Shown: piece after piece, positions 33,301 through 62,000 of the stretch
Layout of the letters: every line of letters begins with the position of its first letter
How positions within the stretch are numbered: position 1 is the first letter of the stretch
Assembly: GCA_038087875.1 (NCBI GenBank)
Contig: CM075991.1
Location: forward strand, 12,278,001 to 12,342,000
DNA: 64,000 nucleotides
Source: Malacoraja senta
Taxonomy: Eukaryota
Direction of reading: 5' to 3'
Made by a program: the position numbers and the translations under genes
Notes under the pieces: model-generated
Told to the model about the DNA's origin: nothing
Seen by the model: only the letters and a program-made list of their open reading frames with translations
Database searches by the model: none

Positions 33301-33989
33301 TGGGGATACGGCAAGAAAGGTCGCATCCCCCCCGAAGGAAGAGCCAAAAAACATGCTTCTCCCACCCCCCCCCCCCCACACACATACACAACTAAAATAA
33401 AACAAAACAAACCGCAACAACTGGACAAAAGAAAACAAAAAAAGAAAAGACAAACGGACTGCAGGACTGAACAATGTACATGGCCGAAGAAGCCATGCAC
33501 ACAGTCTGAAGAAGGGTCTCGACCCGAAACGTTACCTATGCCTGTTCTCCAGAGATGCTGCCTGGCTCGCTGAGTTACACCAGCTTTTTGTGTCCATCTT
33601 CAAATGTACATGGCTTCCTGAGTCTCCTAGACCTTCCATTGAATTAACTGGCCATTCAGCAGATAGGAGTCTATTTTTTCAGCCCAACATTATTCTTCGC
33701 CAATGGAACTTTTTTTAAGCAGCCACTCACTCACCCACACACACACAGACACCCGCTCATTGGCAATGATGCTGAGGATGTGGTTTGGACTCCATTATCT
33801 TCAAGCGCAAGTGTGGCGCTTGTTCTGCCTTCTTACCTTGAACACTTTGCCAAAGGCTCCATCCCCCAGCTCCCCGACGATCCTCCACACGTCCTCAGGG
33901 TCCACTCCCCTCCTCAAGTTCTCAAACTGTTTCGCTTTCTTTTTTTCCGGACCCAACTTGAAACGTTTCATGAAACTGAAGAAAGCCAT
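6166..33989 (-). CDS. SLK: SLK/STK10-family STE20 (GCK-V) Ser/Thr kinase, 20 coding exons, about 1426 aa (full span)
   Basis: Exons: 33837-33989, 27211-27375, 25288-25336, 24570-24719, 23045-23117, 21627-21821, 21040-21121, 19854-19964, 17467-19293, 16893-17093, 16755-16781, 15523-15653, 14618-14741, 13516-13692, 12103-12232, 10020-10144, 8615-8800, 8208-8333, 7083-7196, 6166-6300. All introns are GT-AG and phase-consistent; total 4281 nt. Kinase motifs [26 protein letters not shown] and GTPYWMAPE are present, followed by the [27 protein letters not shown] motif and coiled coils. The symbol marks the family; orthology to SLK itself is uncertain. Confidence 0.9.
6440..6670 (-). mobile_element. 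CR1 3'-end fragment
   Basis: Reverse-complement match to 3150-3340 of the CR1 in this window (ccattcaatcatggctgatc, gaattccacagattcaccaccctctg). Confidence 0.8.
7083..7196 (-). CDS. SLK: SLK-like kinase exon 19 (NEKLHLLV...TSRKE)
   Basis: ccag|AAT ... GAG|gtaaat; 114 nt; homologous to the SLK NEKCHLLVEHE exon. Confidence 0.92.
8208..8333 (-). CDS. SLK: SLK-like kinase exon 18 ([12 protein letters not shown]...LQQLQ)
   Basis: ctccag|TTC ... CAG|gtagc; 126 nt. Confidence 0.92.
8615..8800 (-). CDS. SLK: SLK-like kinase exon 17 (DKERMSH...[15 protein letters not shown]...ELIKQ)
   Basis: ttcacag|GAC ... CAG|gttatt; 186 nt; carries the QERARLPK motif of SLK/LOK. Confidence 0.93.
8875..9270 (-). 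mobile_element. CR1-like LINE 3' fragment
   Basis: (atagaac)n tail followed by the reverse complement of a CR1 ORF2 C-terminus/3' UTR (ggcccttcggcccaca, tcacctt...gtcctctag). Confidence 0.7.
9605..9640. repeat. (CA)n microsatellite
   Basis: CA run visible in the sequence. Confidence 0.9.
10020..10144 (-). CDS. SLK: SLK-like kinase exon 16 ([14 protein letters not shown]...MKRHEK)
   Basis: cattag|AC ... AAG|gtgagt; 125 nt; starts in phase 1. Confidence 0.93.
10272..11011 (+). mobile_element. 5'-truncated Penelope-like element: GIY-YIG endonuclease plus 3' pLTR region, with a 12-bp TSD
   Basis: ORF 10304-10801 has the Cys-rich linker CNRKRCNTC and the GIY-YIG motif NLIYC..C..C..IYIGET.R....R..EH. 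A perfect direct repeat, TAATATTTTAGC, flanks it at 10260-10271 and 11012-11023. Confidence 0.9.
10919..10947 (+). ncRNA. Putative minimal hammerhead-ribozyme-like motif at the Penelope 3' end
   Basis: CTGAAGA-A-GGGT(TTCG)GCCC-GAAA-CGTT: CUGANGA and GAAA core boxes flanking a stem II with a UUCG loop. Penelope-like elements are known to carry minimal hammerheads. Activity is untested. Confidence 0.5.
11321..11414 (-). mobile_element. Short Penelope-derived pLTR insertion with an 11-bp TSD
   Basis: AACAGATTATG at 11310-11320 and 11415-11425 flanks gaaggaactgcagatgctgg...gagtaactcag...catctctggaga. Confidence 0.7.
11480..11920 (-). mobile_element. Degenerate Penelope-like GIY-YIG fragment
   Basis: Reverse-complement similarity to 10430-10800 (gatgttcctc, caagtgaat, ggccctgga, gggaggaggtgaaaggacaa). 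Confidence 0.6.
12103..12232 (-). CDS. SLK: SLK-like kinase exon 15 ([10 protein letters not shown]...QQLKR)
   Basis: cacccag|GAA ... AGA G|gtgaga; 130 nt. Confidence 0.93.
13516..13692 (-). CDS. SLK: SLK-like kinase exon 14 ([14 protein letters not shown]...KDKKQ)
   Basis: gagtag|AAC ... CAA|gtaag; 177 nt; carries the YDQEIEN motif. Confidence 0.9.
13920..14290 (+). mobile_element. Rex1/Babar-like LINE degenerate fragment
   Basis: Translates to [33 protein letters not shown] and [11 protein letters not shown], typical of the Rex1/Babar RT C-terminus. Confidence 0.65.
14618..14741 (-). CDS. SLK: SLK-like kinase exon 13 ([18 protein letters not shown]...ELEMM)
   Basis: ctacag|G ... ATG|gtaagg; 124 nt; RQELRELR is a hallmark motif of the family. 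Confidence 0.95.
15523..15653 (-). CDS. SLK: SLK-like kinase exon 12 ([28 protein letters not shown]...)
   Basis: ttccag|GCC ... AG|gtaaga; 131 nt. Confidence 0.95.
16755..16781 (-). CDS. Probable 27-nt microexon of the SLK-like kinase (GQFEEYEEG)
   Basis: Pyrimidine-rich acceptor ttcatttgtttatttccag, 27 in-frame nt, donor GGG|gtacgt. Confidence 0.6.
16893..17093 (-). CDS. Probable SLK-like kinase exon 10 (ITEPDICTK...VFHKQ)
   Basis: ctcttattttttaag|ATT ... CAG|gtacct; 201 nt, phase 0-0, open and acidic like the preceding exon. Confidence 0.7.
17467..19293 (-). CDS. SLK: SLK-like kinase exon 9, large acidic low-complexity linker (609 aa)
   Basis: ttctgtcag|ATC ... AAG|gtagag; 1827 nt inside ORF 17449-19488; E/S/T/D-rich, in the position of SLK's large central exon. 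Confidence 0.88.
19854..19964 (-). CDS. SLK: SLK-like kinase exon 8 ([27 protein letters not shown]...)
   Basis: tctttcag|CAT ... GAG|gtacta; 111 nt. Confidence 0.92.
21040..21121 (-). CDS. SLK: SLK-like kinase exon 7 ([15 protein letters not shown]...QLLQ)
   Basis: ttttcag|G ... CAG|gtgatc; 82 nt. Confidence 0.93.
21627..21821 (-). CDS. SLK: SLK-like kinase exon 6 ([10 protein letters not shown]...DVWSLGIT...PSQW)
   Basis: catttag|G ... TG|gtaact; 195 nt. Confidence 0.96.
23045..23117 (-). CDS. SLK: SLK-like kinase exon 5 ([25 protein letters not shown])
   Basis: ttcccag|CT ... TG|gtaggt; 73 nt; DFG and activation loop. Confidence 0.95.
23175..23455 (-). mobile_element. V-SINE-like copy
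   Basis: Reverse complement of the SINE at 25751-26068, including the tRNA-like head (atcgaacccagg, cgctgtaaggcagca). Confidence 0.8.
23650..23850 (+). mobile_element. CR1 3' end fragment(s)
   Basis: tttaagaaacatttagacagg...gggccgaagggcctgtt...ctctatgactatga. Confidence 0.7.
24570..24719 (-). CDS. SLK: SLK-like kinase exon 4 ([11 protein letters not shown]...[12 protein letters not shown]...IKL)
   Basis: gtgcag|AG ... CTA G|gtaaga; 150 nt; catalytic loop. Confidence 0.96.
25288..25336 (-). CDS. SLK: SLK-like kinase exon 3 ([16 protein letters not shown])
   Basis: ttgcag|ATT ... TTG G|gtgagt; 49 nt; hinge region. Confidence 0.93.
25751..26068 (+). mobile_element. Full-length tRNA-derived V-SINE (HE1-like)
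   Basis: Pol III A box TGGCGCAGTGG (about 25762) and B box GGTTCGATCC (about 25806); V-domain-like core (ggagtttgtac...ggtgctccggtttcc...tccaaaga); LINE-like tail ending in (CTAAA)n. Confidence 0.88.
26203..26590 (-). mobile_element. CR1 3' fragment
   Basis: Minus-strand ORF 26267-26545 (RGIDKV...[12 protein letters not shown]...[13 protein letters not shown]) is the CR1 ORF2 C-terminus. Confidence 0.85.
26592..26822 (+). mobile_element. V-SINE-like copy, 5'-truncated
   Basis: cagcgccagagatccgggttcaatcct...gtgggttttctccggg...ctgtatctctaaac. Confidence 0.8.
27211..27375 (-). CDS. SLK: SLK-like kinase exon 2 ([15 protein letters not shown]...[10 protein letters not shown]...NSLW)
   Basis: cttcaaag|GCA ... 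TGG|gtgagt; 165 nt; contains the beta3 Lys and alphaC Glu. Confidence 0.95.
28205..28515 (-). mobile_element. V-SINE-like copy
   Basis: (tttag)n tail, body and B box (ggatcgaacc) on the reverse strand. Confidence 0.85.
30010..31040. mobile_element. Two CR1 3' fragments in opposite orientation (about 30010-30360 on +, about 30540-31040 on -)
   Basis: ataaaattatgagaggcatagat...tttaaggtgag on +; catctacactagtcccacctgcc...ctataagatcaccc on -. Confidence 0.7.
32250..32385. repeat. Palindromic Penelope-derived unit with a perfect reverse-strand hammerhead-like motif (32281-32308)
   Basis: gacgtttcgggtcgagacccttcttcag, with inverted arms aggcagcatctctggaga / tctccagagatgctgcct. Confidence 0.75.
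32742..33470 (-). mobile_element. Unclassified GC/CpG-rich retroposon 3' region
   Basis: On the minus strand it ends in AATAAA plus an (ATCAAA)n-type tail; its CpG-rich core is unlike the flanks; no recognisable ORF. Confidence 0.55.
33485..33602 (+). mobile_element. Short hammerhead-motif-bearing insertion with a 12-bp TSD
   Basis: AATGTACATGGC at 33473-33484 and 33603-33614; motif CTGAAGAAGGGTCTCGACCCGAAACGTT at 33506-33533. Confidence 0.75.
33837..33989 (-). CDS. SLK: SLK-like kinase exon 1 ([18 protein letters not shown]...[13 protein letters not shown])
   Basis: ATG at 33989; AAG|gtaaga donor; N-terminus resembles SLK (MSFFNFRKIFKLGSEKKK). Confidence 0.95.

Positions 33990-62000: not shown

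Follow-up and report, generated by a model that had tools for sequence, protein, structure and literature searches.

Short palindromic pLTR units of a Neptune-like Penelope element in Malacoraja senta are probably made at each insertion

The window analyzed here, a 64-kb stretch of Malacoraja senta DNA, contains 50 pLTR arms that belong to a Neptune-like Penelope element, a density of 1 arm per 1.3 kb. The parent element has a C-terminal GIY-YIG endonuclease with a CCHH motif and, upstream of it, a CX2-5CxxC linker finger in which C43, C48 and C51 are conserved, a finger that is also a feature of Nematis and Naiad. The features of EN+ Penelope-like elements are present as well, namely a pLTR, partial tandems, an inverted 5' copy, an optional tail of 30-40 nt and a duplication of variable length. 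RT is represented in the window by one degraded fragment only (28814-29079), with no full copy, and RT and GIY-YIG occur together in the homologue P0015. Since the window holds no usable RT, the element is named Neptune-like and not Neptune.

Several longer, 5'-truncated copies are recognizable. The longest, of 740 bp (10272..11011, forward strand), comprises a frame with the linker Zn-finger and GIY-YIG (10271-10801), a pyrimidine-rich 3' region, a hammerhead-like motif at about 10917-10946 and a tailless pLTR end, and lies within a 12-bp duplication (10260-10271 and 11012-11023) that the original prediction had overlooked. The copy at 48349..48898 (forward strand) belongs to a third subfamily, retains the GIY-YIG end and is tailless, while that at 51227..51980 (reverse strand) is tailed, preserves GIY-YIG remains and has its hammerhead interrupted by a 96-bp MITE. 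At 63624..64000 (reverse strand), a partial tandem, in which a tailed arm is joined without a gap to a 5'-truncated body that has a pLTR of its own, extends past the window. Finally, an older copy of another subfamily (55846..56457, forward strand) serves as host to one of the palindromic units.

The short units are either single arms or head-to-head pairs. The arm at 11321..11414 (reverse strand, 94 bp) is tailed, begins downstream of the hammerhead and is enclosed by an 11-bp duplication (11310-11320 and 11415-11425), and the arm at 33485..33602 (forward strand, 118 bp) is tailless, starts at the 5' hot spot described below and is preceded by about 17 nt, including an inverted copy of the target, within a 12-bp duplication (33473-33484 and 33603-33614). 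Head-to-head pairs, to which no strand is assigned, number nine in the window, four of them with a duplication. The unit at 37230..37449 (220 bp; left arm starting at model position 67, tailless; right arm at 52, tailed) has a blunt centre and a 13-bp duplication (37217-37229 and 37450-37462). The youngest palindromic unit, at 55997..56202 (206 bp), has arms 95% alike (left start 71-73, tailed; right start 56, tailless), a 3-nt overlap at the centre and a 14-bp duplication (55983-55996 and 56203-56216), and is nested in the older Penelope copy mentioned above. In the unit at 57210..57396 (187 bp), which turns at about 92-96, both arms are tailed and the duplication measures 9 bp (57201-57209 and 57397-57405), whereas the unit at 60281..60464 (184 bp), located in a GPCR intron, has a tailed left arm starting at 66, a tailless right arm starting at 87, a 2-nt overlap and a 14-bp duplication with 1 mismatch (60267-60280 and 60465-60478).

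No duplication was found around the other pairs. These include 32241..32386 (left start 53, 3' side cut short; right start 78, tailless; 2-nt centre overlap), an old pair at 36127..36345 (arm similarity 76%, 7-nt spacer, left arm tailed, starts 52 and 55), 39813..39955 (starts 57 and 56, 1 extra centre base, right arm cut short) and 57845..57992 (left start 103, tailed; right start 87, tailless; blunt centre). The locus at 47117..47387 combines a fragment of the GIY-YIG end (47117-47207), a direct arm that is partial and begins at model position 55 (47216-47278), and a tailed arm in inverted orientation (47288-47387).

The six direct repeats of 9-14 bp that the original prediction had reported were all located at the positions given, and with the overlooked one the duplications of seven units measure 9, 11, 12, 12, 13, 14 and 14 bp. 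When the identical search was applied as a control to 1452 mismatched pairs of left and right boundaries, 17 scored at least 9 and none at least 11, compared with 7 of 39 real units in the window scoring at least 9, of which 6 reached at least 11. The weakest case is the 9-bp duplication at 57201/57397 (1.2% per pairing), which adjoins both unit ends without a gap. Duplications are present in 4 of the 9 head-to-head pairs versus 3 of the 30 other units (Fisher p 0.037) and are AT-rich (32% GC versus 43% for the window). In the four duplicated pairs, a single duplication encloses both arms, which rules out nested insertion of arm into arm. Moreover, the 55983 target is present once, insert-free, in a paralogue of the host copy near 22530-22790, which constitutes a paralogous empty site. 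The duplication is undetectable in 32 of the 39 units, including two hairpins of the original prediction (32250 and 57850), and these units may be deletion remnants. Four runs over 55700-60700, with 640,000-717,000 contigs each, revealed no strand changes and no empty sites among the 15 joints listed of about 20,000, a sample that is silent on recurring centres, and read depth in this region does not measure copy number. No RNA data set was listed among the holders of the sequence, a result without bearing on expression.

The 3' ends of the arms fall into two classes about 35 nt apart, a spacing equal to that of the known tail: 27 of the 50 arms end at model positions 140-162, none at 163-173 and 16 at 174-189, the remaining 7 being cut shorter. 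All 11 arm ends that adjoin a duplication sit at one of these two 3' ends, and no more than a few bases are shared or added there. One arm is 35 nt longer than the other in 5 of the 6 intact pairs, an asymmetry that is not significant (p 0.08). Asymmetric pairs contribute four tailless arms, which all end at 151-153. At the other extremity, 18 of the 38 definable 5' ends lie at most 7 nt from the 5' edge of the hammerhead, forming a hot spot away from the ribozyme cut site. A second cluster at 86-95, just past the ribozyme cut (8/20, p 0.0007), was delimited post hoc from ends of limited precision, and we place no weight on it. The pyrimidine tract and CAG at the hot spot, where an intron ends in D. 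virilis, prompted the idea of a spliced template with a common first exon; however, the sequences upstream of 10 single hot-spot arms do not support it: compared with one another and with long copies, they score 12 or less, with a background 99th percentile of 11.

A minimal type I hammerhead is predicted in the pLTR, where the core pattern is intact in the profile consensus and in 5 of the 25 arms that span the motif. Folded as monomers, neither the hammerhead nor the 3' end did better than shuffled sequences, and the 19 matches returned by Rfam were all below the gathering score, with the hammerhead family absent among them. Sub-threshold miRNA matches were also obtained in the Rfam search. 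An exact search with a 29-nt pLTR stretch gave 0 matches in metagenomic and 0 in viral contigs.

The long hairpins that had been predicted are real, with matching arms of 80 nt (95%), 85 nt (88%), 78 nt (90%), 47 nt (89%) and 43 nt (88%), except that the left arm of the one at 32250 is cut short; fold z values range from -6 to -20 in 8 of 9 pairs, the value at pair 47216 being -1.8. They had also been described as usually turning at or near the hammerhead, which does not apply to the pairs at 57210 and 57845, as these turn downstream of the motif and not inside it. The nine pairs have nine distinct centres, whose joints consist of an overlap of 0-3 nt or a few added bases, and even the two closest palindromes (37230 and 55997) differ both in centre and in tailed arm. 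Both arms share subfamily changes in 6 of the 9 pairs, the remaining 3 being near the consensus, and the arms of 55997 show 92-94% identity to the GIY-YIG copy and 95% to each other. In a tree of about 50-135 columns and weak support, palindrome arms are distributed over several sequence lineages, mixed with single-arm and ORF-bearing copies.

The origin of the tandem and inverted ends of Penelope-like elements is described as unresolved (PMC8557442; PMC11167929). Taken together, the differing centres (9/9), the mixing of lineages with ORF-bearing copies and the similar duplication of an ORF-bearing copy support one of the readings originally offered, that of extremely 5'-truncated or inverted Penelope insertions. 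Thus, the units probably arise at each insertion through the machinery of the parent Neptune-like Penelope element and do not constitute a separate family, and they are best read as minimal forms of the known Penelope insertion with an inverted 5'-truncated copy plus tail. The GIY-YIG endonuclease, which we infer to be the enzyme responsible, would cut the two strands of AT-rich DNA with a stagger of 9-14 bp, as the observed duplications indicate. Reverse transcription would begin inside the RNA at either of two sites about 35 nt apart, corresponding to the two observed classes of ends, an explanation suggested by the Anolis enzyme; the in vitro evidence concerns a Poseidon element, not a Neptune. 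Synthesis would often extend for no more than about 100 or 135 nt, up to a fixed point at the hammerhead 5' edge that coincides with the observed hot spot and is probably the RNA start. In palindromes, each cut end would prime its own cDNA, often one per start site, and the cDNAs would be joined head to head, whereas one-sided events would yield single arms or longer truncated copies. For dual priming taken alone, that is, two cDNAs from both strands of one staggered cut, the observed architecture leaves the chances about even, and later deletion at the hairpin tip could vary the centres and imitate the argument drawn from the tail.

A broader proposal, which we advance tentatively and with some doubt, is that dual priming is the normal mode in this family, with the two ends of a single double-strand cut routinely serving the Penelope enzyme as primers on its own RNA at the 5' end, some 100-135 nt away from where that RNA begins. 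If this is true, the genome would be rich in independently made, near-perfect hairpin loci that archive the cut stagger, the start-site choice of each protomer and the RNA start, and host introns would contain a standing source of double-stranded RNA. The architecture is already known, and the gain is mechanistic detail and not a new class: the unit shape hints at the copying of Penelope elements into both strands of a cut, and minimal palindromes with clean duplications, as the simplest reaction products, render the two-ended priming model testable. In addition, repeat pipelines would misname such units as MITEs or microRNA-like hairpins.

Penelope insertions are known to carry an inverted 5'-truncated copy and a one-sided tail between duplications of 9-10 bp (PMC3846280; PMC8557442). 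The insertions in the window resemble those of EN+ Penelope-like elements (Pen2a_Av and relatives, PMC3846280; scheme in PMC8557442; D. virilis Penelope, PMC2377424) in the inverted 5'-truncated copy that adjoins the 5' end, the tail of 30-40 nt at one end, the variable duplication of about 8-14 bp, the partial tandems and the minimal hammerhead in the pLTR. However, the halves here are only 60-135 nt long with no ORF between them, the 5' ends are concentrated at a single point and not scattered, and the density of arms is distinctive. According to PMC11167929, Poseidon of Anolis carolinensis (PAc) cuts and extends both strands, is predicted to form a dimer, starts at two internal sites that lie downstream of the hammerhead, needs no target homology, prefers AT-rich targets and leaves the hammerhead cut unused for most insertions, features that our family parallels in its start sites, independence of target homology, targets and cut usage; the M. 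senta family differs from PAc, as described there, in its linker Zn-finger and a hammerhead without ATG, and palindromic products are not analyzed in the part of the paper considered here. Dispersed minimal hammerheads of metazoan genomes (PMC4209133) likewise include single motifs from truncated PLEs and opposite-strand pairs 100-700 bp apart, noted in Schistosoma, and share a bulged base before helix II and a palindromic helix III, but the arms of a pair here start only 0-20 nt apart and form a single insertion inside one duplication, and helix I has only about 2 bp. As in L1 twin priming or the postulated dual priming (PMC2837659), inverted halves lie within one duplication, would be primed from both nicks and show little microhomology at the centre. 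Twin priming uses non-overlapping parts of the RNA, whereas both halves here cover the same 3'-end sequence, as dual priming predicts; for L1, the authors were unable to show dual priming (PMC2837659).

It is unlikely that the palindromes are remnants of long insertions (inverted pLTR, direct pLTR, ORF, pLTR) whose body was removed by direct-repeat recombination in the manner of solo LTRs. No long inverted element with a duplication exists in the window, where the longest copy reaches 740 bp and RT is limited to the degraded fragment, and the arms of 55997, still 95% alike, would have allowed little time. Repeats of 100-135 bp are, moreover, poor recombination substrates, which counts against this origin. 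In its favor, the locus at 47117-47387 resembles a long inverted element that has lost an internal part, and PMC3846280 both describes the long inverted architecture and attributes solo pLTRs to recombination or deletion.

Alternatively, one cDNA could fold back at a short self-complementary motif at the hammerhead 5' edge and copy itself. The endonuclease would then trim the second arm where the tail begins, and subsequent deletions would shift the centre. The hot spot does contain a 9-nt odd palindrome, TCAGTCTGA, near-symmetric centres occur at 5419 and 39896, and two 5' junctions carry inverted copies of target DNA, which show that templated fold-back synthesis occurs. The tail, too, is ascribed to endonuclease resolution in PMC8557442, although PMC11167929 links it instead to the two start sites. 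However, in three pairs neither arm begins at the motif, and at 55997 and 57845 the tail sits on the arm with the shorter 5' reach, a configuration that a single cDNA folding back on itself is unable to give, so that an extra deletion would be required. We consider this route improbable for the palindromes.

The other reading originally offered, a non-autonomous retrozyme- or SINE-like family in which the hairpin unit is transcribed and reinserted whole by Penelope enzymes, draws on the ORF-less units with their own duplications, the start sites at both ends of every palindrome and a hot spot where a short independent transcript could begin. Non-LTR retrozymes of animals (PMC7761336; bioRxiv 10.64898/2026.07.22.740005) are similarly non-coding, pLTR-related, hammerhead-bearing and PLE-enzyme-dependent, and monomers occur, but they are head-to-tail tandems with a ribozyme per unit and circular RNA, whereas none of 14 tandem rows in the window is a pLTR array. 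This reading does not hold up well and appears very unlikely: most arm ends lie off the ribozyme cut site, the core pattern is intact in few arms, arms are interleaved with ORF-bearing copies, and, with the arms opposed, two like cuts on a single strand would not free a unit-length RNA. Neither a common centre nor monophyly of the palindromes was found, including for the pair 37230 and 55997, with the low power of nine pairs from one 64-kb window and at most 3 per subfamily, in which rare palindrome copying would escape. Furthermore, the shared centre proposed as a mark of copying is ambiguous, as identical centres could also recur via the short self-complementary hot-spot motif.

DNA-transposon MITEs with captured pLTR sequence would likewise be short and ORF-less with inverted arms and duplications, but this origin is extremely improbable and was rightly argued against from the outset, since neither a fixed duplication length (9-14 bp here) nor symmetric termini are present, the ends being asymmetric through the tail, similar duplications flank single arms and an ORF-bearing copy, and the genuine MITE in the window ends symmetrically and has a duplication of 8 bp.

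The short pLTR units of the window are a real feature and represent a short-end form of the insertion architecture already known for Penelope, quite likely generated at each landing. All six direct repeats that the original prediction had claimed around such units are present where it placed them, and a seventh of 12 bp (10260/11012) bounds the 740-bp copy with a GIY-YIG frame. The duplication search covered 39 units, without separate entries for the arms at 52837 and at the window edge; scores of at least 9 were reached by 7 units versus 17 of 1452 mismatched boundary pairings, scores of at least 11 by 6 units versus none of the 1452, and the remaining 32 units gave no score above background. 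In at least one case, the direct repeats are true duplications: the unit starting at 55997 is nested in an older Penelope copy that, without the insert and one repeat, aligns continuously with a paralogue near 22530-22620, where the target occurs once and uninterrupted (9 of 14 bases matching by hand count). The duplications are poorer in GC than the window (32% versus 43%) and are kept by 4 of 9 head-to-head pairs, compared with 3 of the remaining 30 units (p 0.037).

A 190-column profile built from the window copies, whose columns serve as model positions (hammerhead core beginning at 58, predicted cut following 85), detected 50 arms of one end repeat in the 64 kb. Counted with the element sequence upstream of them, the arms make up about 41 stretches that total 7.6 kb (12% of the window). 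The predicted hairpins were confirmed, and the nine pairs have arms starting at model 53/78, 52/55, 67/52, 57/56, 55/~90, 71-73/56, ~92/94, 103/87 and 66/87. Their centres are thus all different, with an overlap of 0-3 nt in six pairs and 1-9 extra bases in three. Subfamily changes are common to both arms in six pairs; the arms of the other three share none and are no closer mutually than to other copies. A tree with weak support distributes the pairs over about four lineages, intermixed with single and ORF-bearing copies. The two most similar pairs (37230 and 55997) both group with the GIY-YIG copy at 10272 and yet have different centres and carry the tail on different arms. The nine distinct centres and this intermixing bear out the earlier reading of extreme 5'-truncated or inverted Penelope insertions.

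The parent element may be termed Neptune-like on the basis of its linker finger, which PMC8557442 reports for Neptune, Nematis and Naiad but not for Penelope/Poseidon. The GIY-YIG frame (10271-10801) contains a CX4CxxC linker, the catalytic residues and a CxxC within the GIY-YIG core; its nearest named proteins come from sharks and rays (61-67% identity), which points to a cartilaginous fish as the probable host, and the C-termini of RT-bearing proteins align with it. A pyrimidine-rich region, differing among at least three subfamilies, lies 3' of the stop codon, followed by a minimal hammerhead of the type described in PMC4209133, with an extra base before helix II, a palindromic helix III and about 2 bp of helix I. 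Of the 25 arms that cover the core, 5 preserve its pattern intact. A degraded N-terminal fragment of a Penelope RT (28814-29079, plus strand) adjoins a minus-strand arm at 29083.

The 3' ends of the 50 arms fall at model 140-162 (27), 174-189 (16) and 130 or below (7), with none at 163-173. The difference between the two main classes is the optional 30-40 nt tail known from Penelope-like elements (PMC8557442), which PMC11167929 traces to reverse transcription starting at either of two internal sites. All 11 arm ends adjoining a duplication coincide with one of these two end classes, apart from a few shared or additional bases at most. Six pairs have lost neither 3' end; in five of them the tail is one-sided and in one it is on both arms, an excess that is not significant against independent choice (p 0.08). 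Full elements with an inverted pLTR have been described that carry a tail of 31 bp on one side and are flanked by duplications of 9-10 bp, together with a direct-tandem copy without duplication (PMC3846280). PMC4209133 reports hammerheads paired on opposite strands at distances of 100-700 bp and attributes dispersed motifs to truncated PLEs. The open-access texts surveyed gave no account of pLTR palindromes that lack an ORF and are bounded by a duplication.

A single duplication encloses the two arms, each outer end corresponds to a start site, and the centres vary. The units are probably produced by two-ended priming, a reading to which about even confidence is given: each of the two 3' ends at a staggered cut would prime its own cDNA, and the two cDNAs would then be joined. 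This is consistent with the Anolis protein, a predicted dimer that cuts and extends both strands (PMC11167929), and corresponds to the "dual priming" postulated, not demonstrated, for L1 (PMC2837659). Alternatively, a single cDNA could fold back and be trimmed by the endonuclease. This rival remains, favoured by two single arms whose 5' junction holds an inverted copy of the unit's target or flank on the 3' side (scores of 15.5 and 10.5, versus a control maximum of 9.5, n=342). Such copies occur at 33485-33501 (12 of 13 bases) and 15994-16022 (22 of 28) and also point to templated fill-in at the second junction. However, fold-back requires a further deletion where the tail sits on the arm with the shorter 5' reach (55997 and 57845); each of the four tailless partners ends at model 151-153. 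Solo formation out of long inverted elements and occasional copying of palindromes as units remain as further rivals. A retrozyme-like family is not supported, since retrozymes are head-to-tail tandems (PMC7761336; bioRxiv 10.64898/2026.07.22.740005), whereas the units are not, and a MITE family, already argued against in the original prediction, is dismissed because the units lack the MITE features given in PMC8969392.

The 5' ends, sorted by hand, continue upstream into element sequence in 11 arms, lie at the window edge in one and fall within the repeat in 38, 18 of which are at model 52-58 (binomial p ~1e-10 versus even spread, for a range picked post hoc). These 18 arms comprise 10 single ones, whose upstream flanks showed no relatedness mutually or to long copies, and 8 abutting a partner. 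The hot spot marks the hammerhead's 5' edge, some 30 nt upstream of the cut site, and coincides with a 9-nt odd palindrome. It contains TCAGT, which we take to resemble an initiator element, and a pyrimidine tract with CAG, similar to a splice acceptor. In D. virilis Penelope, an intron ends at the corresponding point (PMC4209133), with a start site 46 nt before the intron (PMC2377424). Since no shared first exon was seen in the flanks upstream of hot-spot arms, an RNA start is the preferred cause, with an about equal chance of being wrong. If model 55 were the beginning of the RNA, reverse transcription primed at the start sites, close to the RNA 5' end, would yield 100- or 135-nt products directly, so that short units would predominate without a separate family. 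The hot spot was not found described in the open-access texts surveyed. Tiny inverted remnants immediately 5' of hot-spot ends (5419-5435, 47279-47287 and 52820-52843) are possibly micro-palindromes or snap-back additions, and three 5'-truncated bodies (47216, 55846 and 63948) start within a few codons of one another near the GIY-YIG frame end, perhaps a second truncation hot spot.

Four sequencing runs of other organisms were aligned to the region, with heavily paralogous matches. Among the 32 pieces listed, contigs span the left junctions in X2 and X4 for the unit at 57210 and in X2, X4 and X18 for that at 57845; the right junction of 57210 is spanned in X2 as well. Thus, neither unit is an assembly error at these junctions, and both are shared with organisms B or I. 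At 60281-60464, the listed pieces extend only 21-22 nt into the unit and are not counted as bridging. Two listed X18 pieces of the repeat hosting 55997 start at 56202-56203 and continue into sequence that differs from the arm; they are compatible with empty paralogous sites, although they do not display the join. Of the 15 joints listed, four, which involve 60281, link the 3' part of a sense arm to a tailed antisense end (14-53 contigs per run), which suggests that tail-to-tail neighbours are also common.

Other features surround the units. The intron that separates two coding stretches of a rhodopsin-family GPCR (58584-59072 and 61620-62312) holds four of them, one palindromic. A 96-bp MITE (51356-51451) with imperfect ~19-bp terminal inverted repeats and an 8-bp duplication, presumably hAT-like from the duplication length, sits in the hammerhead of a Penelope copy. 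A sub-threshold match to the CPEB3 (HDV-like) ribozyme (32199-32232, plus strand; 22.4 bits versus 35, E 0.19), probably due to chance, adjoins a cut-short arm at 32241. A 681-codon, acidic-residue-rich open frame (17449-19494, minus strand), without a match in the Pfam comparison, is probably a large host exon. Two more RT-coding retrotransposon copies (RVT_1; 974-3301 and 43107-44877) are LINE-like and unrelated to the units, inverted repeats unrelated to pLTR occur at 35798-35892 (40 nt, 85%) and 5877-6059 (32 nt, 94%), and a 78-bp sequence in 3.8 tandem copies, 98% alike (54045-54339), belongs to another dispersed repeat.
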